This document shows, piece by piece, positions 2,398-22,559 of a DNA stretch of 50,871 nucleotides. The notes beneath the pieces were generated by a model. It ran no database searches. It worked only from the letters and a program-made list of their open reading frames with translations, and had not been told where the DNA came from. Each line of letters starts with the position of its first letter. The stretch's first letter is position 1. A program made the translations under genes and the position numbers. The stretch comes from an uncultured Candidatus Saccharibacteria bacterium. GTDB lineage: Bacteria; Patescibacteriota; Minisyncoccia; Phycocordibacterales; UBA9973. The DNA lies in the NCBI GenBank assembly GCA_964408305.1, contig CAYOYW010000001.1:11410-62280 (forward strand), given 5' to 3'.

Positions 2398-3180
2398 TTA
2401 GTGTAAGAGAGTTTTAATATCTATACTGATAGAGACTGTATTACTTGTGCCATTACCATTCTTAACCAAAAGTATAGCACGCACAAATGTCTTTCCATTT
2501 TCAACATAAATATTTCCTCCACTAAGGTTCGCGACAAATGCCGTAAGTATTGCATCATAGGAAGCTGTATTTTTATAAGGGGCAAGTTGTGCTCGTACTT
2601 TTTCTACCGCCGAAGAACTGAAAGGGAATGAGAGTGTTTTGCCATCAACAGAGCTATAAGAACCGATTGGTTTATCACTATCACTGACAATAATAATGCT
2701 ATTTCCTGTTGGTAAAAAGTTAGCACCTGAGAGGGTAAGCATCTCGGGGCTCTTGGTTATAACTGTAGGACTGACACTTTCAATATTTGGAGAAAGAGTC
2801 GTCTGTGTGTTGCCAGAAGTAACTGTTGTGTTTGTTGAAGCAGTACTTGGATAGAGCTTACGAAGCTTTACTCTCGTCATAGCACCAACGACACCGGTTG
2901 GAAAAGAGACTCCTGCGGGATAAAGTATTTCGCTTGCATATTTTGTCTGAAACCGTATAACCGCTGCTTTAGTGAGCGAACCAAAATAAAGGGTTTCTTT
3001 TCCAGGGCTTCCTATCCCCGTATCAGCAATTCTTGTTTCAGGGTCTTTATTTAAAAGTATTTGCAACTCCTTTACTTCAGCACCAGTTGAACCAAGCTTT
3101 AATGTCCTTGTAATCTCTGCATGAGAAGTATTTGAAGCTATAAAGAAAAGGAGGATGCTAAAGGAGATTATTTTCTTCAT
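2398..3180 (-). CDS. secreted peptidoglycan-binding-domain protein
   Basis: Signal peptide MKKIISFSILLFFIASNTSHA. PG_binding_1-like segment LKLGSTGAEVKELQILLNK...GSLTKAAVIRFQ. The C-terminal half is beta-rich (IPT/Ig-like by eye). Confidence 0.75.
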   Translation of the reverse strand: MKKIISFSILLFFIASNTSHAEITRTLKLGSTGAEVKELQILLNKDPETRIADTGIGSPGKETLYFGSLTKAAVIRFQTKYASEILYPAGVSFPTGVVGAMTRVKLRKLYPSTASTNTTVTSGNTQTTLSPNIESVSPTVITKSPEMLTLSGANFLPTGNSIIIVSDSDKPIGSYSSVDGKTLSFPFSSSAVEKVRAQLAPYKNTASYDAILTAFVANLSGGNIYVENGKTFVRAILLVKNGNGTSNTVSISIDIKTLLH

Positions 3181-3204
3181 CCAGAAAGTGTATCACGAAA
3201 GTAA

Positions 3205-4266
3205 CTAGAACTGCGTTCCTTTTTTGGTACCAACCCACGGGTTTATACCACCACGAACTTCAAAATGAAGATGGGGTCCAGTCGAACGGCCAGTATTTCC
3301 TGAGAGTGCTATTTTTTCTAGTTGCTTTGCGGTATCACCAACTTCAACATAAACAGCAGAGAGGTGGCCATAGAGCGTCTGTGTTCCATTTGAGTGTTCA
3401 AGAACAATGTATTTACCATATCCACCGTTATAACCTGATGATTTTGCAACAATAACAGTACCTTCTGCAGCAGCAAGAACAGGTGTCCCGACTGGGGCTC
3501 CAAAATCAACAGCATTATATCCATGGGCACCTTGTGTCAAAACTGCACCTGGAATAGGGAATGAGAAATAACTATCTTTTATTTCGTCAGTTTTATTTTC
3601 TTCCTTGTCTTCCCCAGTAAGTTCTTGTTTTGTAGTCGCAGTAACAGTTTTTACCTCCACTTCATCTTTCTTTAGAGAAACGCTATTTGTTTTTAAGGCT
3701 ACTTTTTCGTTTTGAGAAAGAACCGGGAGCTCTGCGTTTGGAATGATGAGCTTCATACCAACCTTAATTGGTTTTCCGTCTTCAAGATCATTAAAGGAAA
3801 CAATTTCATCAGCATCTGCATCAAGTTTTGCTGCAATACCACTCAAAGTATCCCCCTTTTTTACTGTGTATTGAATTCCGCTCACCGGAAGAATAGTGAG
3901 TTTTTGACCAACCTTAATAATTGACTTTTTATTCAGATCGTTTGCCCAGAGAATAGTGTTTGTTGAAATAGAGAACTTCTCAGCAATTGTTGAAAGATTG
4001 TCGCCAGCCTGAACAATATAGGTAGTAATAACAGGCTTGTCATTAGTAGTATTTGTTATAGGCTCTTGGGGTACTGTTATATCAGGCTCAAGTACTGCAT
4101 CTGGTGCAACAATACTACTGTCTTTAACTGCAGTAGAATCAGCCAATGAAATGGTAGTGAGCTGTTTTGCAAACAGCATGAGAACACCGCCATTGACGAG
4201 AAAAAGGCCAAAAACTATGAGAAACATGTGTTTAGGACGCATGTTTTTTGTTTTTAGAGAAACCAT
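3205..4266 (-). CDS. LysM-domain M23 family metallopeptidase
   Basis: N-terminal TM helix. Two LysM repeats (YIVQAGDNLSTIAEKFSIS..., YTVKKGDTLSGIAAKLDAD...). M23 signature GYNAVDFGAPVGTPVLAAAEGTV ... GNTGRSTGPHLHFEVR. Confidence 0.9.
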   Translation of the reverse strand: MVSLKTKNMRPKHMFLIVFGLFLVNGGVLMLFAKQLTTISLADSTAVKDSSIVAPDAVLEPDITVPQEPITNTTNDKPVITTYIVQAGDNLSTIAEKFSISTNTILWANDLNKKSIIKVGQKLTILPVSGIQYTVKKGDTLSGIAAKLDADADEIVSFNDLEDGKPIKVGMKLIIPNAELPVLSQNEKVALKTNSVSLKKDEVEVKTVTATTKQELTGEDKEENKTDEIKDSYFSFPIPGAVLTQGAHGYNAVDFGAPVGTPVLAAAEGTVIVAKSSGYNGGYGKYIVLEHSNGTQTLYGHLSAVYVEVGDTAKQLEKIALSGNTGRSTGPHLHFEVRGGINPWVGTKKGTQF

Positions 4267-11175: not shown

Positions 11176-14100
11176 GTGAATCTAATTTCTTTTTTAAGAA
11201 AGAAGTATACAAAACCTTTTGTAGGAGCACTTTTTGCTTTCGTTTTTTTATTTTCTTTTTTCAGTACTACAGGAAAAGCAGAGGCGCAGCTCTACGACAG
11301 TTATAAAAATCTATTTAAAGGGAACGATCCTGCTCCTTCGCTCAATTTTGTTTCTCTTGTTAAAAAGGATCCTACTGATGCCACAAAGCTTGTTTTTGAT
11401 TTCAAATTCAATCTTCAAGCGAGTTTTGACCTAAACGTTGGCGGAAGTGCTCCAAAAGATTGGCACTGGAACCATATTAGAGATTTTGATAATCCAAATG
11501 TGTTTATTCTTCGAGTCTGTAATGCGGATGCAACAGGGGAAGGCGCTTGTCTATTTTCTGTTATTCCATATGCAAGTAAAGCATCAACAGACCAAGACCT
11601 GAAAAACTTAGTCTGTAAGAACGGTACCTGTACACTACCGACAGAGGGAGGTGTTTGGCCAAAGATCTATCACTACAAGGCAAAAGCATCGGGTCCTAAC
11701 TTAATATATGTTGACGAACAGTTTCATAGATTCAATGTCACTTTTGATGTAAAAGATTTAGCATTTCTAAAAGACGGAAAGTTAGACACTCCAGAGACTT
11801 TAGCTAGCCTCTTCAAGATTGGTTCGAAAGATACCTGGAAAGCTGATGCTTGGTATTGTTCAGGAATAGTAAGTGGAGAGCCGCTTCCAACAGAAGATGG
11901 ATCAGATCCGGATATTCGACAGTTTAAAAAGATCTGCGGTGATGGGCACCCTTATTTTAAAATCGCAACTTCTGGTACTTTCAAAATGCCTCAAACCGTT
12001 GATGAAGGGTTGGGTCAAACACCTGCTACAGATCCAAATATTGGAACAGCCATGGAAACGGATACACTTCCTGTCTGTGGTGTTACTTATTTCAGTGATG
12101 GGTCTTTGATGGGTTGTGTCGCCCGAGTCGTGTATTACGTTTTCTATTGGCCGATTGCCTGGGTTGCTGGAATACTTGGAAAGGTATTTGATTTCTTCCT
12201 GGGATATTCCTTGAGTGACGAGTCATATCGAGCAGCTATTATTGTGACCGGGTGGAAACTTGTCCGAGATATATCAAACATCTTCTTTATCATCATCCTT
12301 ATTTGGACCGGGCTTGCAACTGTGTTCAACATAAGCAGTATATCGATGAAAAAGATTGTCCCTGCAGTTATCATCAATGCGCTGCTTATCAATTTCAGTC
12401 TATTTGGAACGCAAGTGGTGATCGATATTTCAAATATTACCGCTAGACTTTTCTACAACACTATGGCTGTTTGTGACGGAGAGTGTCGATATATTGAAAC
12501 CTCAAAAGGAAAGATTATAGAGAACCCTAGTACTGATACTGTCGGTGGGTACAAATCACTTTCCTCAAAAATAGTTTCATCGTTCAACCCACAACGTGTA
12601 TTCTCGACAACTTCACTTGATGATGGAGCTGCGCTGAAAAAAGAAAAACCTGCAGAAGGTAGCCAGAGTGCAACAGTAGGAGGACTTAACTCTCAAGCAG
12701 CTGATGAGAACCTTTCAAATGCATCTACAAAATCTCGTTACTCTAGCGACTATGCCGGCTACTTTATCGTTATCACATTGATTGCAGCGTTCATCATGTT
12801 CGCCATTGCAAAGATGTTCTTCGGGGTCATGTTTATGTTCGTAGGGCGAGTAGTAGGACTCTACCTTACAATGATCTTTTCTCCATTTGCAGTCCTCACT
12901 CGAGGGAATATGCCAATTGTCGGCGGCATCAAGGATCTTGCATGGGAAAACTGGAAGAAGGAGCTCTTTGAATACGCACTCCTTGCTCCGATATTTGTAT
13001 TCTTCCTTTACATCATTTATGCATTTATAAACTCCGACATGACAAAGGTGTTTCTCTCAAGCAACAACAGCGCAGGCTTCATGGAAACAGTACTCACAAT
13101 TGCAATACCGATGATTATTATTTATACGCTTATCGGGTACGGTGTTGGTCTTGCAAAGAAATACGCCGGAAAAGCAGGTGAAATGCTCCAAAGTCTTGGA
13201 TCTAAAGCGGTTGGTATGGCAACCGGTGCTGCTGTTGGTGTTGCAACAGGCGGAGCAGCTCTAGCTGGAAGAGGAGCGACAAGCCTCCTTAACAAAGGGG
13301 TTGGTACATGGGCAGCAGCAAACAAAGATAGCAACGTTTTGGCTGGCGGTGTTAACAAATTCCTCCAATGGGGACAAAAATCGAGTTTTGATATTAGAAA
13401 CACCAAGCTTGGCGAAGGGTTTAATAAAGGCGTTGCAGGACTTGGTATCAAGCAAGAAGATAAAGTCTCTTCCTTTGTGGGGCTCGGACAGAAAGACTAT
13501 CTAGGTGGAAATGTGAAGATTAGAAAGGATCGAGAAAAAGAAAAGGAGGAGCGAGCAACAAAGAAAAATGACATGAGTCATTTGACTGACAAACAAGCAC
13601 AGGATGTGTGGGATCGTCGAACAAAGAAACAAACTGAAAAAGAAGCAGACGAGGTATGGGCAAAGGGAGAGCTTGATAAGCGAAAGAATGCAGACCCTAC
13701 TTTCAAAGCTCTTGAAAAAGTTGCAGAGCGACTGGAGGCAGATCTCAAGACAGCAGTTGAATCGAAGAATACGACAAACGAAAAAATCATTCGAGAGCAG
13801 TTGGCAACAAATAAGAAGGAGCGAGATCAGATCGTCGCAATGACGATGACACCAAGTATTGAGGCTGCTATCAAAGACAAGTCACACCAAGAGACAAAAG
13901 AGTACAAAGACGCACTCAAGAGCGCACAAGATGATTCAAAGAAAAAATATGGCGAAGTTAAAAGTGCAGAAGATCTTTCGAAAGCAATGCGATACGAATA
14001 CGCTCAGAGAATGCTACAAGACTCGCTCACTCTCTCAGAAAAGGAGAAGCGAAAGGGTCTCTCACAGACGGGCGGCATCGTGGCAACAGCTCTATCACAA

Positions 14101-14661
14101 CTTATACCTGGAGTTGGACTTTCAGCAGCAGTTGTCGGCGGACTCGTTGGTAACTACATAGACTCACAGCAAGAGGCAGACAAGCGAGTGTTTGAAAAGA
14201 TTGTTAAAGACTTTGAAAAGAGTAAGAATAAGGATACGAAGCTTGGTAGATTAAAGACAAAACTTAAAGAAGTTGATGATCTGATAGACGGCCATATTCG
14301 AACTGTCCTTGGAAGAGCTGTTGATGCAAGTCTTAGTGATTTAACGGATGACCAAAAGACAGAACACTTCAATAAAGCACGGTCAGACGCCCAAACAGCA
14401 GCAGATATAGCGGAAGACGAATACAAAGAAGCAAGAGAGAAATACAAGAGAACAAAACTACAAAGCGATCTGGACGAGATGAATAGAAGAAGCACTGAAC
14501 GACAGAGAACAAAGGATGAACTAAACGATCTAAACAATGCTCAGAAGAACAAGGATTCTATCAAAGACAACATTGAGGAGGAAGAAAGAAAAGCAAAAGA
14601 ACAAGACGACAAAAAAGATAAAAAGAAGGACGATGGTAAGAAGTCAGGTGAAGAAAAATAA
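11176..14661 (+). CDS. VirB6/TrbL-like polytopic membrane protein with an extracytoplasmic N-domain and a long K/E-rich tail (1161 aa)
   Basis: GTG start with TATACT 8 nt upstream. Signal-like N-terminus ending KAEAQ. At least 6 hydrophobic helices lie between ~12100 and ~13270 (VVYYVFYWPIAWVAGILG, IFFIIILIWTGLATVF, IVPAVIINALLINFSLFG, YFIVITLIAAFIMFAIAKMFFGVMFMFVG, LLAPIFVFFLYIIYAFI, LTIAIPMIIIYTLIGYGV). From ~13480 onward it is a charged coiled-coil-like tail. The family assignment rests on topology and context only. Confidence 0.65.
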   Translation: MNLISFLRKKYTKPFVGALFAFVFLFSFFSTTGKAEAQLYDSYKNLFKGNDPAPSLNFVSLVKKDPTDATKLVFDFKFNLQASFDLNVGGSAPKDWHWNHIRDFDNPNVFILRVCNADATGEGACLFSVIPYASKASTDQDLKNLVCKNGTCTLPTEGGVWPKIYHYKAKASGPNLIYVDEQFHRFNVTFDVKDLAFLKDGKLDTPETLASLFKIGSKDTWKADAWYCSGIVSGEPLPTEDGSDPDIRQFKKICGDGHPYFKIATSGTFKMPQTVDEGLGQTPATDPNIGTAMETDTLPVCGVTYFSDGSLMGCVARVVYYVFYWPIAWVAGILGKVFDFFLGYSLSDESYRAAIIVTGWKLVRDISNIFFIIILIWTGLATVFNISSISMKKIVPAVIINALLINFSLFGTQVVIDISNITARLFYNTMAVCDGECRYIETSKGKIIENPSTDTVGGYKSLSSKIVSSFNPQRVFSTTSLDDGAALKKEKPAEGSQSATVGGLNSQAADENLSNASTKSRYSSDYAGYFIVITLIAAFIMFAIAKMFFGVMFMFVGRVVGLYLTMIFSPFAVLTRGNMPIVGGIKDLAWENWKKELFEYALLAPIFVFFLYIIYAFINSDMTKVFLSSNNSAGFMETVLTIAIPMIIIYTLIGYGVGLAKKYAGKAGEMLQSLGSKAVGMATGAAVGVATGGAALAGRGATSLLNKGVGTWAAANKDSNVLAGGVNKFLQWGQKSSFDIRNTKLGEGFNKGVAGLGIKQEDKVSSFVGLGQKDYLGGNVKIRKDREKEKEERATKKNDMSHLTDKQAQDVWDRRTKKQTEKEADEVWAKGELDKRKNADPTFKALEKVAERLEADLKTAVESKNTTNEKIIREQLATNKKERDQIVAMTMTPSIEAAIKDKSHQETKEYKDALKSAQDDSKKKYGEVKSAEDLSKAMRYEYAQRMLQDSLTLSEKEKRKGLSQTGGIVATALSQLIPGVGLSAAVVGGLVGNYIDSQQEADKRVFEKIVKDFEKSKNKDTKLGRLKTKLKEVDDLIDGHIRTVLGRAVDASLSDLTDDQKTEHFNKARSDAQTAADIAEDEYKEAREKYKRTKLQSDLDEMNRRSTERQRTKDELNDLNNAQKNKDSIKDNIEEEERKAKEQDDKKDKKKDDGKKSGEEK

Positions 14662-15518: not shown

Positions 15519-15920
15519 ATGCAATTTAAAGTACCACAATTTATTGACATGGAAGATAAGGTTTTTGGAAATCTTTCTTTCAAGCAGTTCGCCTATCTTG
15601 CAGGTGGAGGAGGACTTGCATATCTTTCGCTTCGCCTTACGCCAGCATTTATTGCAATATTACTCGTTCCAGCCTTTGTTGGCCTTGCACTCGCGCTTGC
15701 GTTTGTAAAAGTAAATGAGAAACCTTTTTCACATGCACTTGAGTCTTTTGTACGCTTTTATATGCGTTCACGACTCTACCTCTGGAAAAAACAAGAGCAA
15801 AAACTAAAGAAGCAAGAGGAGTTACCAGCAAATCAAAAGTCAATCCATGCTACACTCTCTGAGAGTAAACTAAAGACGCTTTCATGGAGTCTTGATGTTA
15901 TCGATTCTCAAAAGAAATAA
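15519..15920 (+). CDS. PrgI/VirB3-like two-TM T4SS protein
   Basis: MQFKVPQFIDMEDKVFGNLSFKQFAYLAGGG matches the PrgI-family N-terminal pattern (KVP..I..E.K..G..t.rQ). Two hydrophobic helices follow. It lies just upstream of the VirB4-like ATPase. Confidence 0.7.
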   Translation: MQFKVPQFIDMEDKVFGNLSFKQFAYLAGGGGLAYLSLRLTPAFIAILLVPAFVGLALALAFVKVNEKPFSHALESFVRFYMRSRLYLWKKQEQKLKKQEELPANQKSIHATLSESKLKTLSWSLDVIDSQKK

Positions 15921-15923
15921 TCT

Positions 15924-16556
15924 ATGGCAATAAAAAGTAGTCCAACACAAGAATTTGTTCCTGTAAAAGAGATACGGGACGGTGTTATTGTCCTTAAGGA
16001 CGACACGCTCGCTTCTATTGTGCTTGTCTCTTCTATAAACCTCTCCCTTAAATCTTATGACGAACAACGAGCAGTCATTGGCCAGTTTCAAAACTTCCTT
16101 AATACACTCGACTTCCCAATGCAAATAGTGATCCAGTCACGAAGGTACGATGTACGGCCTTATATTCTCACACTTGAAAATCGCCTCAAACAACAAACCG
16201 AGCCGCTGTTGCGGGTTCAAACACAGGAGTATATTGAATTCATTCAAACCTTCACTGAACAAGTGAACATTATGAGGAAAAATTTCTTTGTCGTCGTACC
16301 ATACAACCCCTCAATTATTAGTCAGACAAGTGGGCTTGGAAAAATCTTTTCTTTCTTTGGAAAAAAACAAACAGCAGCAGATCTTACCGCAAGTTTTGAA
16401 GAACAACGAACACAATTAGAGCAGCGGATGAGTGTTGTTGAGCAGGGGCTTTCTCGACTCGGGCTTCGGGTTGCACAACTTGGCACACAAGAGGTGATTG
16501 AACTACTCTATAAAACATTCAATCCCGGAGAAACAACGGTCCATGCAGAGGGGTAA
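15924..16556 (+). CDS. hypothetical protein, possibly a free-standing VirB4 N-domain-like paralogue
   Basis: 210 aa, soluble. Its opening (VPVKEIRDGVIVLKDDTLASIVLVSSINLSLKSYDEQRAVIGQFQNFLNTLDFPMQIVIQSRR) has the same pattern as the N-terminal region of the adjacent ATPase (IEITSKSMRIGDKIVRTFFVISYPRYL...FDIAIFINPIE). The similarity was judged by eye only. Confidence 0.5.
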   Translation: MAIKSSPTQEFVPVKEIRDGVIVLKDDTLASIVLVSSINLSLKSYDEQRAVIGQFQNFLNTLDFPMQIVIQSRRYDVRPYILTLENRLKQQTEPLLRVQTQEYIEFIQTFTEQVNIMRKNFFVVVPYNPSIISQTSGLGKIFSFFGKKQTAADLTASFEEQRTQLEQRMSVVEQGLSRLGLRVAQLGTQEVIELLYKTFNPGETTVHAEG

Positions 16557-16597: not shown

Positions 16598-18424
16598 ATG
16601 GCGCTTTTTGGGTCAAGCCAAAAAAACAAACAAGCAACTGGGGCAAAAAGTCTTCCTGTGTTACCTGAAGAGGCATATTCATGGGCAACGAGTGAGCTTG
16701 CTGACAATATCGCTCCCTCTGCTATAGAGATCACCTCAAAGTCAATGCGCATAGGGGACAAGATTGTCAGAACATTTTTTGTTATCTCTTACCCGCGATA
16801 CCTCAATGACAATTGGCTGACACCAATCATCAACCTCGATAAGGTCTTTGATATAGCTATTTTTATTAATCCAATAGAAACCGCAGAACTTCTCAAAAAG
16901 TTCCAAAAGAAAATTGCGGAGGTAGAAAGCCAAATCATGGTACGACAACAAAAAGGTCTTGTGCGAGATCCTATGCTTGATACTGCATACCAAGACCTCG
17001 AAGAGCTTCGAGACAGTCTCACGCAAGCACAAGAAAAAATGTTCACTGTTGGTTTTTACATTAGTGTTTATGCGGATAATGAAAAAGATCTCTTCCGAAC
17101 AGAAAGTGAAATTCGCTCGATGCTTGAATCAAAACTCATTTATATAAAGCCAACACTTTTTCAAGAAGAGGATGGTTTTAGAACAATCACACCACTTGGA
17201 ATTGATCGTTTGAATGTTACTCAAAAACTCAACTCAGAGCCTATTTCAAGCATGTTTCCTTTTGTGTCCTTTGATTTAACCTCAGACGAAGGAATTCTTT
17301 ATGGGGTAAATAGACACAATTCGAGCCTTGTTATTTTTGATCGTTTTTCTCTTGAAAATTACAACTCTATTATTTTTGCAAAGTCTGGTGCAGGAAAATC
17401 TTTTGCAACAAAACTTGAAATCATTAGAACACTCATGTTCGATACTGATGTTATTGTGATTGACCCTGAACGAGAGTATGAATATCTTGCTGAGTCTATT
17501 GGTGGTCGGTACTTCAATATTTCACTCTCTTCTGATAACCATATTAATCCTTTTGACTTACCAATCCCTCGAGAAGACGAAGCTCCTGCTGATGTTCTTC
17601 GAAGCAATATTATTAACCTTGTAGGACTCTTTCGTATTATGCTTGGAGGGCTCACTCCAGAAGAGGACTCTATTATCGATAGGGCGATCACAGAAACTTA
17701 CGCACTCAAGGATATTGATGCAAACTCTGATTTTGCAAGTATTGAGCCGCCACTGCTCTCTGATTTTGAAATGGTGCTCTCTGGGATGGAAGGGAGCGAA
17801 TCTATTCTCCAAAGACTCACAAAGTACACAAAAGGTTCTTGGGCAAGCTTTATTAATCAACCAACAAATGTAGATATTAATAAAAAGTTTGTGGTGTTCT
17901 CAGTACGAGACATGGAGGATGATCTCAAGCCCGCGGCCATGTATATCGTGACACACTTTATCTGGAATGCGGTTCGAAAAGAACTCAAAAAGAGGCTCTT
18001 AGTGGTGGATGAGGCGTGGTGGATGATGAAAAGCGATGATACTGCATCCTTCCTTTACTCAATTGCAAAACGAGGGAGAAAGTATTACCTTGGACTCTGT
18101 ACAATCACACAGGATGTGGGGGATTTTATGAAAAGCCCATACGGAGTGCCTATTGTCACAAACTCTTCTATTCAGCTCCTCCTCAAACAGTCCCCGAGTA
18201 CTATGGAAGTGCTCCAAAAAACATTTAACCTCACCGATGAAGAAAAGTACCTTCTCCTCGAATCTGGTGTTGGAGAGGGGATCTTCTTTGCGGGACTGAA
18301 ACATGTTGCTATTAAAATTATAGCTTCCTATACAGAGGAGCAAATTGTCACTTCGGACCCATCGCAAATCCTCGCTATAAAGCGAGCAAAACAAGAGTTT
18401 AGGGAACAACAAGGTCAGCTCTAA
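16598..18424 (+). CDS. virB4: VirB4/TrbE/PrgJ-class T4SS ATPase
   Basis: Walker A IIFAKSGAGKSFAT (~17380-17405) and Walker B KRLLVVDEAWWMM, then RKYYLGLCTITQD. 608 aa. TATACT lies 9 nt upstream of the ATG. Confidence 0.85.
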   Translation: MALFGSSQKNKQATGAKSLPVLPEEAYSWATSELADNIAPSAIEITSKSMRIGDKIVRTFFVISYPRYLNDNWLTPIINLDKVFDIAIFINPIETAELLKKFQKKIAEVESQIMVRQQKGLVRDPMLDTAYQDLEELRDSLTQAQEKMFTVGFYISVYADNEKDLFRTESEIRSMLESKLIYIKPTLFQEEDGFRTITPLGIDRLNVTQKLNSEPISSMFPFVSFDLTSDEGILYGVNRHNSSLVIFDRFSLENYNSIIFAKSGAGKSFATKLEIIRTLMFDTDVIVIDPEREYEYLAESIGGRYFNISLSSDNHINPFDLPIPREDEAPADVLRSNIINLVGLFRIMLGGLTPEEDSIIDRAITETYALKDIDANSDFASIEPPLLSDFEMVLSGMEGSESILQRLTKYTKGSWASFINQPTNVDINKKFVVFSVRDMEDDLKPAAMYIVTHFIWNAVRKELKKRLLVVDEAWWMMKSDDTASFLYSIAKRGRKYYLGLCTITQDVGDFMKSPYGVPIVTNSSIQLLLKQSPSTMEVLQKTFNLTDEEKYLLLESGVGEGIFFAGLKHVAIKIIASYTEEQIVTSDPSQILAIKRAKQEFREQQGQL

Positions 18425-18448: not shown

Positions 18449-19411
18449 ATGTACAAGAAACTCTGTATCGGAATTTCACTTATATTTTTCTTCATCACTC
18501 CTAGTTTTGCGCAGTTTGAAAACGCGAGCCTTGCGCCCGATATCTCCATTGTTGCTATACCAGAGAACCCAAAACCGGGGGAGACTGTAACGCTTGAAGC
18601 AATAAGCTACGGTGCTGATTTAAATCAGGCAAGTCTCATATGGAAATATAATGATAAAACCATTGCTTCGGGTATCGGTCGAACCAAAATAACACTCACT
18701 GCTCCTCGTACGAACTCTTCAGGATTTATTTCTCTTTCTGTTGGTGGTGCAGGTTTCCAGCAGACACAAATTGGATATACGCTTCGTTCTGCAAGTGTTG
18801 ACCTCCTCTGGGAAGCAATAGACTCATATACCCCTCCCTTCTACAAAGGAAAAGCGCTTCTTTCAAAAAATGCATTGGTACGGGTAACTGCTATCCAGAC
18901 AAGAAGTGCACCAAAGAACCTTTCTTTTGAGTGGTCACGAAACGACAGCGCTGTTCCAGCGTACTCTGGATATAACAAAAACGCATTGATTTTCAAGAAT
19001 GAAACACTAAAAAACGAGGAGCGGATTTCAGTAACAGCAAGTGGTGGACTCTTTAGTGGCAGTAAAAATCTTTCTTTGCTACCAGGAAAACCAACAATAC
19101 TCATGTATCAAAAAAAAGAGGGGTTTATTAACTATGCGAGAGGATATACGGATGATTTTGAAACAACTGATCCTGGTATTACACTTCGATTTGAGCCATA
19201 TTTCTTTTCGATACCAAGAGGGAGTATCTCAAAAGATCTCAGTTTCGACATAGAAAACAACAGTACTCCACTGTATGGGGAAAAAGAACAGAACGAAATT
19301 AGTCTCTCGAACCCAGGAAGCAGACAAAAGAGTGTGCTTCGTGTCTCGGTAAGTACAATCCTGTACTCACTGCAGAATGCTGCTCGATCTTTTTCGGTAT
19401 CTTTCAACTAA
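18449..19411 (+). CDS. secreted beta-rich hypothetical protein
   Basis: Signal peptide MYKKLCIGISLIFFFITPSFAQ and Ig-like repeated strands (PKPGETVTLEAISYG...). TATACT lies 6 nt upstream of the ATG. Confidence 0.6.
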   Translation: MYKKLCIGISLIFFFITPSFAQFENASLAPDISIVAIPENPKPGETVTLEAISYGADLNQASLIWKYNDKTIASGIGRTKITLTAPRTNSSGFISLSVGGAGFQQTQIGYTLRSASVDLLWEAIDSYTPPFYKGKALLSKNALVRVTAIQTRSAPKNLSFEWSRNDSAVPAYSGYNKNALIFKNETLKNEERISVTASGGLFSGSKNLSLLPGKPTILMYQKKEGFINYARGYTDDFETTDPGITLRFEPYFFSIPRGSISKDLSFDIENNSTPLYGEKEQNEISLSNPGSRQKSVLRVSVSTILYSLQNAARSFSVSFN

Positions 19412-19444: not shown

Positions 19445-21286
19445 ATGAAGACATTTAAAAAAATATTCTGTCTTTTTTACCTCTTTCTTTTCACGCTCTC
19501 TTCTATTCCAAAAGAGTCTCTTGCTCAACAAATATATCCTTATGCCTTTGACGCAAAAGCACAGGGGACACAAATAACTGTCACACTCTCTGGTGTTCCA
19601 GCTGCAGATAGGGGGAAAGCAAATATATTCATAGAGCCCCTAAACACATTTCCTATAGGCCTTGTCTGCCCAATAGGGAGCTCTGATATTAAATGCGCAG
19701 CCTCTGTCCAACCAACAAAAACGATATCACAGAACGGCACTATTACTTGGACTCGTTCTGCCTCTGTCTCTGGGGGATCTATTTACTATATTCGAGCAGA
19801 GATAGATTTTGGTGGCACAAAAGCGCCTTATATTTCAGCAGTAAAATGGGTTGTAACTGGTGCTGAAACAGTTGATGCCCAGTGGCCACTTACCTATGGT
19901 AAGGAATGTAACCCATCAACAATTATTGGGAAGCTAAACAACACCAACAAAGCAGATTTCACTATTACAATTCAGTACGCAGGAACAGCAATGCCTGCTG
20001 ATGAGTCAACTCCAGCGGGCGCTTCCGGCCCTATACAGTCAGTAAATGGTATCAACGAAGATGGCACCTATAGCTTTATCCTGCAGAACCTTGAGAAAAA
20101 TACACAATATTTTGTAAAACAAATTATCAGATCAAAAAATGGTGCACTTGATATAAAGACTGATAAATTTAAAACCTGTCAGGGATATATACCAGCAGGC
20201 TCAAACGATGAAGCAAACGATTTCAATAAAAGAAGCTATCGACTCCTTGCACCAATATCTGAAAAACTCCAAATCGTGCTCGATCAGGATCTTTGCCAAG
20301 AGTATGTAAATGAAGGAAAGCTTCAGCCGGGATCTTGTGATAACCAAATTAGCGACTTCCTTAATATTATCCTCCAAATACTTATCGGGCTTGCAGTTGT
20401 CATGCTTGTCGTACAAATAATTCTGAAGGGGTATGAGTACATGGTAACTGACACTCCTTTTAAAAAGACAGCTGCAAAAAGTAGAATTATGGAAGCTGCT
20501 GCTGGGCTTCTCCTTGCACTCTCTGCATATGTTATTTTGAACACAATAAACCCAAGACTAGTATCTCCTGATGTAAATATTCAAAAGCTGGACATTGGAG
20601 TGGAAGACCTTAATATCTCGGGAGCTGCAACATTTGATGGAAAACCTATAAAGGTTGATTTGAAAAAAGAGGCTTACCCAGCAGCAAAAATAGCATCCCA
20701 AAAAACCGGGGTTGATATAGCTTTTATTTTGGCAATGTTCCAGCAAGAATCAGGGAGTGGTAGTAATAGTGGTAAATGTCTTTCGACTCAATCAAATATG
20801 AGGGTTGCTGACTATCAGTATTTAAACAATGAACTAATTCCTTTAATAAACAGTGAGTACCCAAACAAAACTAAACTTGTAAAGGATTCTGTAAATGTAT
20901 CATGTACAAGCAAAACAAGCACTGGTGGTGCTGGAGATGGTGGGGCTATAGGTTATACGCAGTTTATGCCAACAACATGGAAGGAGTATCGAGAGAGCGC
21001 CAAATCATTACTTGGCCATGAGCCATATCCATGGGACACAGGAGATGCTCTAATGATGACAGCGCTATTTTTAAAGAATAAGGGTGGTGCTATAAATAAT
21101 GAAGCATCTCAAGAACAAGCTGCTTGTAAATACTTTGGAACCTGCACTAGATCAAATGGTAAACCGTGGCTCATTTCTTGTAGTGGTGAACAAAAAACTT
21201 ATGGGCAATGTGTTATAGGAAAAAAGAAGTACTATCAACAAGTAATAGATGATGCTATCAAAAAAGGCGAGGCCTGGGTTAAATAG
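19445..21286 (+). CDS. secreted protein fusing a VirB2/TrbC-like pilin hairpin with a C-terminal lytic transglycosylase-like domain
   Basis: Signal peptide followed by a ~270-aa beta-rich domain. YRLLAPI...ISDFLNIILQILIGLAVVMLVVQIILKGYEYMVTDTPFKKTAAKSRIMEAAAGLLLALSAYVILNTINPRLV (~20348-20562) reads as two hydrophobic helices joined by a basic loop. The C-terminus carries AFILAMFQQESGSG (catalytic Glu context) and GYTQFMPTTWKEY (MltB/SLT-type motif). Confidence 0.7.
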   Translation: MKTFKKIFCLFYLFLFTLSSIPKESLAQQIYPYAFDAKAQGTQITVTLSGVPAADRGKANIFIEPLNTFPIGLVCPIGSSDIKCAASVQPTKTISQNGTITWTRSASVSGGSIYYIRAEIDFGGTKAPYISAVKWVVTGAETVDAQWPLTYGKECNPSTIIGKLNNTNKADFTITIQYAGTAMPADESTPAGASGPIQSVNGINEDGTYSFILQNLEKNTQYFVKQIIRSKNGALDIKTDKFKTCQGYIPAGSNDEANDFNKRSYRLLAPISEKLQIVLDQDLCQEYVNEGKLQPGSCDNQISDFLNIILQILIGLAVVMLVVQIILKGYEYMVTDTPFKKTAAKSRIMEAAAGLLLALSAYVILNTINPRLVSPDVNIQKLDIGVEDLNISGAATFDGKPIKVDLKKEAYPAAKIASQKTGVDIAFILAMFQQESGSGSNSGKCLSTQSNMRVADYQYLNNELIPLINSEYPNKTKLVKDSVNVSCTSKTSTGGAGDGGAIGYTQFMPTTWKEYRESAKSLLGHEPYPWDTGDALMMTALFLKNKGGAINNEASQEQAACKYFGTCTRSNGKPWLISCSGEQKTYGQCVIGKKKYYQQVIDDAIKKGEAWVK

Positions 21287-21308: not shown

Positions 21309-22559
21309 ATGCGTAAGGGAATTCTAATTTTAATACTAATACTATTTGTTGTAGTGGTTGGTTGGTCTTTTTACAAAAAATCAAAATCTACCACTGGGGC
21401 AGACCAAACGAGTGGCTTCAAGTCATTTTTTCCATTTGGAAACAGTAATAGTGCCACAGAACCAGACGGAACACTATCTCAAAACGAGCCAAGAACAATA
21501 AATACTGACGGGTCAACCACTAATTCTCCATTCAAAAAAATTACCTCTCACAGCGTTTCTGGTTTTACTTTCTTCCTCTCAAAAACAACCCTTACGACAC
21601 CTACACAAAATACAAAAGAGAAAAGTAAGGTAGAAACGGTTATTGATAAAAATATCCGCTATGTCTCAAGAACGAGTGGCTATGTATACGAAATAAAAAA
21701 TGGAGGTACCCCAATACAGGTAAGTAATATCTATATCCCAAATATTTATGAAGCGCTCTTTAGTCCAAATGGAGGAAGTGTAATACTCCGCTTTTTGAGA
21801 GACGACCAGAGGACAATTGCAAGCTATGTTGTGCCTGTACCGGACAAAAACCCAGATGGAACAAGAACACAAAAAGATGGTATATATCTCCCTGATAGTA
21901 CACTCGCACTTGATATAGCTCCGGATAGTACAAGCATCGCTCGAGTAGTTCCTGATGGGGAGCTTACAACTCTTTCAAGCACAACACTTGCAAATACGGG
22001 GAGAAAAGAGCTTTACCGGGGGCCGTTTCGCGAATGGCTCGTTTCTTGGCCAACTCAAAAGAGTGTTTTTCTACAGACAAAAGCAAGTGGAACAACAGTC
22101 GGTTTTTTATATGAAGTAGATTCTGTAAACAAGAGGCTCTCTCGTATCCTTGGAGATGTGCAAGGGCTTACCACCTCTGTGAGTCCTGATGGGGCATATA
22201 TTCTTTATTCAGAGAGCAACAAAGACTCTTTTACTACAAAACTTCTTTCCACAAAAACCGGTTCAGTAAAAACACTCGGCCTTTCTGTACTTCCTGAAAA
22301 ATGTGTCTGGACAAAAAGTAACGATCTTATTTGTGCAGGAGGAAATACACCTCCAGGTACTTACCCTGACGACTGGTATGCTGGTATTATCTCCTTCTCT
22401 GATAGGATATTTCGCATTTACTCTGGAGCTGGAGCATTCGATGTCCTCTATAGTGGGGATGAAGAGTTTGATATGACAAACCTACGACTCGATGAAGAAA
22501 CAAGTACGCTGTACTTTATCAACAAGAAAGATGCCTCTCTCTGGCAGTTTATTTTTTAG
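21309..22559 (+). CDS. membrane-anchored putative beta-propeller (PD40/TolB-like) protein
   Basis: N-terminal TM helix (GILILILILFVVVVGWSFY). Repeated SPDG/SPNG-type strands (FSPNGGSVILRF, VSPDGAYILYSE). The 3' end overlaps convergent yidC by 11 nt. Confidence 0.55.
   Translation: MRKGILILILILFVVVVGWSFYKKSKSTTGADQTSGFKSFFPFGNSNSATEPDGTLSQNEPRTINTDGSTTNSPFKKITSHSVSGFTFFLSKTTLTTPTQNTKEKSKVETVIDKNIRYVSRTSGYVYEIKNGGTPIQVSNIYIPNIYEALFSPNGGSVILRFLRDDQRTIASYVVPVPDKNPDGTRTQKDGIYLPDSTLALDIAPDSTSIARVVPDGELTTLSSTTLANTGRKELYRGPFREWLVSWPTQKSVFLQTKASGTTVGFLYEVDSVNKRLSRILGDVQGLTTSVSPDGAYILYSESNKDSFTTKLLSTKTGSVKTLGLSVLPEKCVWTKSNDLICAGGNTPPGTYPDDWYAGIISFSDRIFRIYSGAGAFDVLYSGDEEFDMTNLRLDEETSTLYFINKKDASLWQFIF

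Follow-up and report, generated by a model that had tools for sequence, protein, structure and literature searches.

A stretch of 50,871 nucleotides from an uncultured Candidatus Saccharibacteria bacterium (assembly GCA_964408305.1, contig CAYOYW010000001.1, positions 11,410 to 62,280; hereafter the window) carries a type IV secretion system (T4SS) operon, and one of its genes, at 19445..21286 on the forward strand, encodes a protein in which a pilin-like membrane hairpin and a lytic transglycosylase-like domain are joined in a single chain. The reading that we favour, with somewhat better than even confidence, is that this protein is the wall-opening component of the T4SS, acting in the role of VirB1, and that it is tethered and targeted by a pilin-homologous adapter. 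Comparison with related loci identifies the fusion gene as a predicted fixed core component of the origin-proximal T4SS in Paceibacteria-type Patescibacteria, and the sequences of its relatives indicate that the C-terminal module is exchanged among at least ten peptidoglycan-active Pfam families. The swappable enzyme, the fixed place of the fusion in Paceibacteria-type T4SS operons and the presence of standalone pilin genes elsewhere in the genome go beyond an earlier note on this DNA, which had described the layout of the protein from its sequence.

A pilin-type hairpin and a lysozyme-fold enzyme in one chain

The protein is composed of the following parts (coordinates refer to the window, residue numbers to the protein).

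19445..21286, forward strand: whole gene of the hairpin and transglycosylase protein, 613 amino acids; uninterrupted open reading frame (ORF), PF18895 and PF13406 both above cut-off
19445..19525, forward strand: Sec signal peptide, residues 1-27, with MKTFKK, a hydrophobic core and a putative cleavage site between SLA and QQ, without a lipobox; read from the sequence
19526..20194, forward strand: two tandem beta-sandwich fn3/Ig-like ectodomains, residues ~28-250; from AlphaFold2 and Foldseek
20195..20341, forward strand: juxtamembrane pre-hairpin element, residues 251-299, with RSYRLLAP (263-270) and the cysteine pair C284 and C298; from conserved columns
20345..20548, forward strand: VirB2-like helical hairpin, residues 301-368; from PF18895, AlphaFold2 helices and conservation
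20537..20563, forward strand: junction motif LNTINPRLV, residues 365-373, with the nearly invariant N369-P370, where the constant region ends; from the family alignment
20564..20644, forward strand: flexible linker, residues 374-400, with a weak xNxIxIxxVxxGVE(E/D) pattern; from model confidence and the junction consensus
20645..21283, forward strand: lysozyme-fold lytic transglycosylase domain (MltB/Slt35-like, SLT_2), residues ~401-613, mainly helical; from Pfam, profile alignment and Foldseek
20747..20749, forward strand: codon of Glu435, the predicted catalytic acid in QESGSG; from alignment to the Glu of MltB and SltB3
20942..20980, forward strand: substrate-groove motif GAIGYTQFMPTTW, residues 500-512; from alignment to Slt35 and MltB

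The full-length AlphaFold2 model was calculated from 44 homologues and has a mean predicted local distance difference test score (pLDDT) of 86.1. Since a fold search with this model returned only fn3/Ig matches originating from the N-terminal domains, residues 290-613 were modelled separately, with a pLDDT of 82.6. The earlier note had named a signal peptide and a beta-rich domain at the N-terminus; the signal sequence is indeed seen, with a hydrophobic segment present at every N-terminus among the homologues, and the beta-rich region is modelled as two beta domains with high confidence (pLDDT mostly above 90). In Foldseek these ectodomains match cytokine-receptor, fn3 and purple-acid-phosphatase N-domains (E ~2e-6). 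They are the variable part of the family and are absent altogether from nine members, thus signal peptide, hairpin and enzyme make up the conserved core.

In the pre-hairpin element Y265 is invariant and L268 nearly so, and both cysteine columns are invariant in the distant homologue set; C284 and C298 probably form an extracytoplasmic disulfide. The two hydrophobic helices with a basic loop that had been noted at ~20348-20562 (residues 302-373) agree with the AlphaFold2 helices at 301-334 and 338-368, the hydrophobic cores of which span residues ~306-328 (TM1, the first transmembrane segment) and 348-368 (TM2). Between these cores lies the basic loop GYEYMVTDTPFKKTAAKSR (residues 329-347), with D336, P338, K341 and K345 conserved. 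The linker following the hairpin has pLDDT values below 50 at residues 376-388 in the full-length model, and the corresponding residues in the second model behave likewise. Given the signal peptide, the net-positive loop and the confinement of the conserved cysteines to outside segments, both large flanks would be located outside the cell and only the basic loop would be cytoplasmic. An assembly or frameshift artefact or a chance product could be ruled out, as the architecture recurs across hundreds of independent genomes and metagenomes.

The assignment of the hairpin to VirB2/TrbC-type pilins, made earlier from the layout, is borne out by the Pfam model T4SS_pilin (PF18895), which scores 31.3 bits against a cut-off of 26.6 over residues 300-368 (profile positions 3-71 of 71), with TrbC/VirB2 (PF04956) remaining below its own threshold. 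Altogether three independent pilin-type models match the hairpin, PF18895 alone above cut-off. Since PF18895 is imperfectly specific, a profile was built from the fusion hairpins only. Searched against all 7964 ORFs of at least 50 amino acids in the genome, it found the window protein and two standalone pilin-array genes, and no others. When 121 species genomes of the same order were searched with the hairpin alone, 92 contained matching pilin-like ORFs of 125-907 amino acids, the best with an E-value of 1e-21. Hairpin and post-motif are also the best conserved parts of the family: the fraction of the commonest residue is 0.57-0.75 for TM1, loop, TM2 and post-motif, while the N-domains reach 0.18-0.34 and the enzyme region 0.19-0.36. 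The passed cut-off, the selection of pilin-array genes and the top conservation support the view that the hairpin is homologous to the VirB2-like T4SS pilins of Patescibacteria and answer the earlier question whether it is merely a generic transmembrane anchor. Unlike pilins that end soon after the second helix, the window protein continues for 245 amino acids after TM2.

For the C-terminal domain, the SLT/MltB-like signature that had been pointed out (FQQESGSG, GYTQFMPTTW) is backed by Pfam SLT_2 (PF13406), marginally above its cut-off with 25.9 versus 24.3 bits and also detected in 21 of 44 close homologues. This score is modest, and the support comes mainly from family-level analyses. The family profile aligns to the solved enzymes MltB (9vlr, E 9.3e-5), SltB3 (5anz, 4.5e-4) and Slt35 (1d0k, 6e-3). 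Glu435 in FQQESGSG (residues 432-439) aligns with the Glu of GVETGYG in MltB 9vlr and of GMESNYG in SltB3 5anz, which, from Slt35, we take to be the catalytic residue of family-3 transglycosylases, and it is nearly invariant among SLT_2-bearing homologues. The doubt whether the context of the catalytic Glu would align with the SLT/MltB families is thereby settled in favour of MltB, SltB3 and Slt35. The motif GAIGYTQFMPTTW aligns with GAIGFPQFMPS of MltB in the family profile and with AGAMGYGQFMPSSY of Slt35 in a single-sequence search of sequences in the Protein Data Bank (PDB), where the match is weak (E ~0.09). With the model of residues 290-613, Foldseek returned a coherent list of GH23 chitinase, SltB2, SltB3, Tse3, MltE and g-type lysozymes, with weak E-values (9e-3 to 1). 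Orthology to MltB failed at the NCBIfam equivalog cut-offs (TIGR02282, 18.3 versus 281.4; TIGR02283, 21.9 versus 248.45), indicating a relation to MltB at the domain level only. No match to PF01464, the family-1 SLT of VirB1 type, was found by Pfam in the window protein; this domain is present at the equivalent position in 11 of 85 distant family members.

Genomic setting and exchange of the enzyme module

The genome (0.91 Mb in 77 contigs, ~89% complete) encodes the fusion in a co-directional block with the order VirB6-like protein (1161 amino acids, 11176-14661), 190-amino-acid protein, PrgI/VirB3, TrsD-like protein of 210 amino acids, VirB4, 320-amino-acid protein, fusion and 416-amino-acid protein, followed by yidC on the opposite strand and then dnaA and dnaN. 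The operon is an origin-proximal, MPF-FATA-derived, Gram-positive-type chromosomal T4SS of Patescibacteria (PMC12102498), and the fusion occupies the second gene slot after virB4. The neighbours are the following.

15519-15920, forward strand: PrgI/VirB3-like protein; Pfam PrgI
15924-16556, forward strand: TrsD/VirB4-N-like protein, 210 amino acids; NCBIfam TrsD/TraD, N-terminal region of VirB4 models
16598-18424, forward strand: VirB4 ATPase; Pfam P-loop_TraG, AAA_10
18449..19411, forward strand: conserved exported protein, 320 amino acids, between virB4 and the fusion; homologue in nearly all related loci
21309..22559, forward strand: conserved membrane-anchored protein, 416 amino acids, downstream of the fusion; kept across loci whatever enzyme class precedes it

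Neither the 320- nor the 416-amino-acid protein can be assigned to a Pfam or NCBIfam family, and both probably represent uncharacterised components of the T4SS. The counterparts of the 210-amino-acid protein in relatives match the Pfam TraC-like family PF26593, and it resembles a free VirB4 N-domain.

Relatives of the fusion were collected with the hairpin region (residues 255-400) as query, which gave 939 representatives at 50% identity and E<=1e-10. Relatives are encoded by at least 466 stretches in GTDB species genomes, 79 of which were examined as loci, and the homologues are labelled Paceibacterota, Paceibacteria, Nomurabacteria or Minisyncoccia. Of the 79 loci, 68 encode VirB4 and 61 have DnaA at a distance of at most 10 kb. 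In 66 of 74 cases the fusion starts 700-1700 nucleotides (median 1042) after virB4 on the same strand, and on three metagenomic contigs, L010 and L011 included, the order is identical gene for gene. L025 and about 30 of the loci L019-L097 are labelled 'Burkholderiales bacterium' or 'uncultured Candidatus Saccharibacteria'. Their synteny, PrgI-VirB4-fusion-YidC-DnaA, is typical of the Paceibacteria type, and the labelling or binning of these metagenome-assembled genomes is probably wrong.

No second PF18895 gene is located within the T4SS operon. Five standalone PF18895 pilin-like genes were found in tandem on contig 20 (2586-5604, reverse strand), encoding 111, 133, 240, 188 and 297 amino acids; in each of them a signal peptide and a variable N-terminal region precede the C-terminal hairpin, and the chain ends 20-40 amino acids after TM2. 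This array is far from the T4SS operon and adjoins a solute-binding-like gene and gyrA. A sixth PF18895 match on contig 70 (200-499) contains an in-frame TGA and may be a pseudogene, a sequencing error or a case of recoding. Elsewhere in the window, upstream of the T4SS block, outside the operon and on the opposite strand (2398-4266, reverse strand), two further wall-active proteins are encoded, a LysM-LysM-Peptidase_M23 protein and a PG_binding_1 protein.

At least 100 amino acids follow the hairpin in 165 of 168 single-hairpin proteins (median 208). Pfam scans of 129 members identified SLT_2, SLT, SLT_4, NlpC/P60, Amidase_5, VanY, Peptidase_M15_4, YkuD, Amidase_2 and Peptidase_M74 as C-terminal domains. 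When 248 C-terminal modules were clustered by sequence, 21 clusters resulted; several of these have no Pfam match, and every Pfam-labelled cluster is peptidoglycan-active. The modules comprise 44 VanY, 43 NlpC/P60, 43 SLT_2, 40 family-1 SLT-like, 17 YkuD, 8 M15_4, 5 Amidase_2 and 2 3D domains. In one relative (P0067, 932 amino acids) the SLT-like module is followed by a GDSL/SGNH esterase domain, possibly a peptidoglycan O-acetylesterase linked to the glycan cutter.

A tree of the hairpin region with 248 tips requires 138 changes of enzyme class, compared to 170 +/- 3.6 for shuffled labels; because the tree rests on 123 columns, the number of changes is an upper estimate. Independent of the tree, pairs that are 80-90% identical in the hairpin region share a common enzyme class in just 16%. 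Nine loci contain tandem double copies, in which the hairpins are 92-100% and the pre-hairpin elements 79-100% identical and the enzymes are unrelated; between genomes the median hairpin identity is 45%. In five of these tandem pairs one enzyme clearly cuts glycan and its partner peptide, and the other four pairs consist of an unlabelled module (cluster c5) and NlpC/P60 or YkuD. The 416-amino-acid downstream gene was considered as an immunity protein, which could be ruled out, since it is conserved irrespective of the cassette. As this same protein follows in nearly all loci regardless of the enzyme class, there is no cassette-specific immunity gene.

The module boundary is sharp. Among the family proteins not selected by motif, 160 of 165 contain LNTINPxLV, which occurs in all 21 enzyme clusters; the frequency was taken from this set because the 79 loci had been retrieved by a pattern containing LNTINP. 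After the motif a weak xNxIxIxxVxxGVEE pattern follows, and then conservation vanishes. Two short relatives without an enzyme (L016 and L018) retain TINPxLV. Another group (P0103, P0154, P0171, P0164, P0165 and P0107) contains 2 to 17 tandem pilin-like hairpin units of ~100 amino acids each per polypeptide, without in-frame stops; P0165 has four units with TINP at the end of each and a 177-amino-acid C-terminal module. These chains could be poly-pilin precursors or polytopic membrane proteins.

A proposed wall opener of the secretion system and its alternatives

In the proposed mechanism the protein would be exported by the Sec pathway and, after removal of the signal peptide, would be held in the membrane by the two-helix hairpin. 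The Ig-like domains on the N-side would be located outside, as would the MltB-like lytic transglycosylase on the C-side, ~20 flexible residues past TM2. The hairpin would be a constant adapter that uses the membrane contacts of a pilin subunit, probably with the VirB6/VirB3/VirB4 platform, and would station the peptidoglycan-cutting module at the machine, within ~20 residues of the membrane at the assembly site. There the enzyme could locally open the cell's own wall for passage of the channel or the pilus, a job equivalent to that of VirB1 in Gram-negative and of PrgK, TraG or CwlT in Gram-positive systems, and in some genomes two copies would pair a glycan cutter with a peptide cutter. Since any bond-cleaving activity would suffice, the enzyme module could be freely exchanged behind the LNTINPxLV junction. 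The extreme conservation of the hairpin and its homogenisation between paralogues within a genome suggest that it makes specific contacts, and the likeliest ones would be those of pilin protomers with the inner-membrane platform. The earlier note had offered two readings, a membrane-tethered wall-cutting enzyme and a processed precursor, and the first of them is the better supported one.

Published observations are consistent with such a role. All T4SS studied in Gram-positives or monoderms require a membrane-tethered wall hydrolase, namely PrgK, TraG or CwlT (PMC12102498). Methanogens, which lack murein, serve as hosts to some parasitic Paceibacteria, in which PF18895 proteins are nevertheless strongly expressed (PMC10936435); because of these hosts a self-directed role is favoured. 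S. epibionticum requires its T4SS and pilins for epibiotic growth (Wang et al. 2023, PMC10633639), and two essential hydrolase genes are located immediately after its virB4: SEML1_0007, the product of which ends in a DD-peptidase fold, and SEML1_0006, which combines lysozyme-like domains with a Cys protease (PMC10633639). For SEML1_0007 (1113 amino acids), Table S2 of Wang et al. 2023 assigns the DD-peptidase fold to residues 951-1105 and nothing to residues 1-950. This spacing would fit a pilin-type hairpin ~200 amino acids before the C-terminus, making the protein a candidate member of the family; should the hairpin be present, the family would have a member with experimental essentiality data.

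Several points weigh against our proposal. PF18895 scores modestly for the hairpin, the support again comes mainly from the family level, and its specificity is limited, with weak matches (E<=1) in 11 of 14 control genomes and the cut-off passed in one of them. PF04956 reaches 18.8 bits on the hairpin stretch (cut-off 27.9, E 0.0019) and, among the relatives, E<=1e-3 in 3 of 85 with 8.2e-5 as the best value; the NCBIfam model for the Mycoplasma 'Mbov_0395 family pilin-like conjugal transfer protein' of integrative and conjugative elements likewise remains below cut-off (25.5 bits, E 7.6e-6). Among the Foldseek matches listed for the hairpin a solved VirB2 or TraA pilin is absent and only generic helical hairpins are present, the two-helix fold being too simple for such a comparison. 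Docking of the hairpin to T4SS parts is conjecture, and cleavage could occur at the invariant N-P of the junction. Furthermore, a very fast turnover of cassettes is seen more typically in effectors with a varied target than in a housekeeping enzyme that opens the wall. That the protein acts on the cell's own wall and remains uncleaved is what we infer from the arguments given here.

This turnover leads to an alternative that we regard as unlikely, in which the protein is a pilus-borne wall breaker directed against the host. The hairpin would then be a true pilin protomer, a minor, tip or decorating subunit of a VirB2-like pilus, the outward Ig-like domains and the enzyme would attach to the host wall and break through it, and the cassettes would diversify with host wall chemistry. 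The termini of VirB2 are exposed on the pilus surface in the structures of the F- and T-pilus, and since both termini of VirB2-type pilins face the pilus exterior, Ig-like domains and cassette would be displayed outward. The combination of a constant N-terminal part, a sharp junction motif and a hypervariable C-terminal enzyme is known from polymorphic effector systems, the enzyme class is almost uncoupled from the hairpin phylogeny and the fn3/Ig N-terminal domains are adhesin-like. The essential role of pilins and T4SS in the epibiotic growth of S. epibionticum (PMC10633639) and the high expression of PF18895 proteins in parasitic Paceibacteria (PMC10936435) would fit as well. However, the linker is short (~20 amino acids), and ~500 amino acids appended to each subunit would crowd a homopolymeric filament. 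The same 416-amino-acid protein follows whatever the cassette, hence an immunity gene specific for the cassette is missing; some hosts of Paceibacteria are archaea without murein (PMC10936435), and according to reviews the pilus of the Patescibacterial T4SS has not been visualised so far.

About as doubtful is the possibility that the hairpin serves as a delivery adapter, loading exchangeable wall-degrading cassettes onto the T4SS pilus or releasing them by Asn-Pro cleavage. If this were true, the T4SS of Patescibacteria would at least partly be used to drill through the host wall and would represent a polymorphic-effector system built on a pilin, and the turnover of the cassettes would record adaptation to differing host wall chemistries.

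Less probable still is a precursor that is cut at or just after the junction, between LNTIN and P, by Asn-Pro autocleavage or by a protease, yielding an Ig-bearing pilin and a free secreted hydrolase. Asn-Pro autocleavage is known from the NPTH sites of FlhB and YscU, and C-terminal processing of TrbC and of VirB1 (release of VirB1*) is established. The earlier suggestion to look for a conserved site between the domains proved right insofar as N369-P370 is nearly invariant exactly at the end of conservation, in all 21 enzyme clusters, and is followed by the disordered linker; moreover, the standalone array pilins of this genome end 20-40 amino acids after TM2 without an N-P there, and multi-hairpin chains such as P0165, where every unit ends in TINP, could be understood as polyprotein precursors. 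The idea of a cleavage signal specific to enzyme-bearing forms is weakened by the short enzyme-less relatives: they keep TINPxLV, so the motif is not tied to a releasable part. In addition, N-P is also a common helix-terminating motif, and no dedicated TraF/LepB-like peptidase was seen in the operon with Pfam and NCBIfam annotation.

A generic membrane anchor for a housekeeping transglycosylase, with the pilin match as a composition artefact, would agree with the low-level PF18895 matches in most control genomes and the generic hairpins in Foldseek but is very improbable, given that no part of the protein is better conserved than the hairpin, which has invariant polar and Gly positions, that three pilin-type models match it, that its profile finds only the window protein and pilin-array genes among 7964 ORFs and that in 66 of 74 cases the gene keeps its place in the virB4 operon.

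Relation to known systems and meaning of the fusion

With the Patescibacterial T4SS pilins (PF18895, for example SEML1_0014-0019 of S. epibionticum; Quinonero-Coronel et al. 2025, PMC12102498) the fusion shares the hairpin, the signal peptide, often a variable N-terminal ectodomain and the linkage to virB4. These pilins are ~110-300 amino acids long and end 20-40 amino acids after TM2, whereas the window protein continues for 245 amino acids into an enzyme. The fusion hairpins are also far more alike, with a median identity of 45% between genomes and 92-100% between paralogues compared to an average of 25% within pilin arrays (PMC12102498), and RSYRLLAP and LNTINPxLV are motifs specific to the clade of the fusion.

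Like VirB1 of Agrobacterium, P19 and TraL, the window protein has a lysozyme-fold peptidoglycan cleaver encoded in a T4SS operon and presumed to open the wall locally. VirB1 is functionally tied to pilus biogenesis (VirB1*). It is a soluble periplasmic family-1 SLT (PF01464) separate from VirB2, whereas the fusion contains an MltB-like PF13406 domain embedded in the membrane via a pilin-type hairpin, and unlike in VirB1 the type of enzyme varies across orthologues. PrgK (pCF10), TraG (pIP501), CwlT (ICEBs1) and TcpG (pCW3) belong to monoderm systems of MPF-FATA type and are essential, membrane-tethered, extracytoplasmic wall hydrolases, which resembles the role proposed here. They combine glycan- and peptide-cutting in one chain, a pairing that is reproduced by the tandem paralogues of the fusion in nine loci. 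In contrast to their single N-terminal transmembrane or signal anchor and two enzyme domains, the fusion has an internal pilin-homologous hairpin and one enzyme per chain.

The Glu motif, the GxxGxxQFMPxT motif and the lysozyme-like fold of the window domain align with MltB/Slt35 and SltB3. Compared to MltB, however, the domain is very distant (18-22 versus 248-281 bits) and shorter, lacks the lipobox and the N-terminal domains and is found in a monoderm T4SS context. A constant N-terminal region, a sharp junction motif and unrelated C-terminal catalytic modules are shared with polymorphic toxins (CdiA-CT behind VENN, Rhs, LXG), as are tandem copies that differ only after the junction. Unlike these toxins, the fusion has no cassette-specific immunity gene and is followed by the same gene in nearly all loci; its identifiable modules all act on peptidoglycan and not on nucleic acids or membranes, and the region that stays constant in it is a membrane hairpin from a family of secretion-system pilins.

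The T4SS of Patescibacteria, its position near dnaA and the PF18895 pilin arrays have already been published (PMC12102498). In the full-text literature searched, no description of the hairpin-hydrolase fusion, of its fixed slot or of the cassette exchange was found; what is new here is that a T4SS wall hydrolase has a pilin-type adapter, which is unprecedented, and shows cassette dynamics. A survey from 2025 scored VirB1 and VirB2 separately and concluded that most genomes with VirB2 have no VirB1, and among its 'VirB2' entries are PF18895 proteins encoded at the second position behind virB4, such as genes 535 and 537 of GCA_000505065.1 (PMC12102498). Published surveys have probably counted such fusion proteins simply as 'VirB2', and the fusion would offer a likely explanation for the VirB2 genomes that seem to be without VirB1.

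Patescibacteria represent a large share of bacterial diversity, and the role of their origin-proximal T4SS, which the one species tested needs for epibiotic growth, has been called completely unknown (PMC11665869, PMC10633639, PMC12857230). The catalytic Glu, the invariant N-P junction and the swappable hairpin offer experimental handles, and the behaviour of the cassettes illustrates cleanly how domains are shuffled in nature behind a fixed junction. In operons of Paceibacteria type, the PF18895 gene would be not a plain pilin gene but one for a hairpin adapter with a peptidoglycan-cleaving cassette. Since the functions of VirB2 and VirB1 would thus be joined in one chain, the fusion gives a 'Rosetta-stone' hint that the two may cooperate at the same site.

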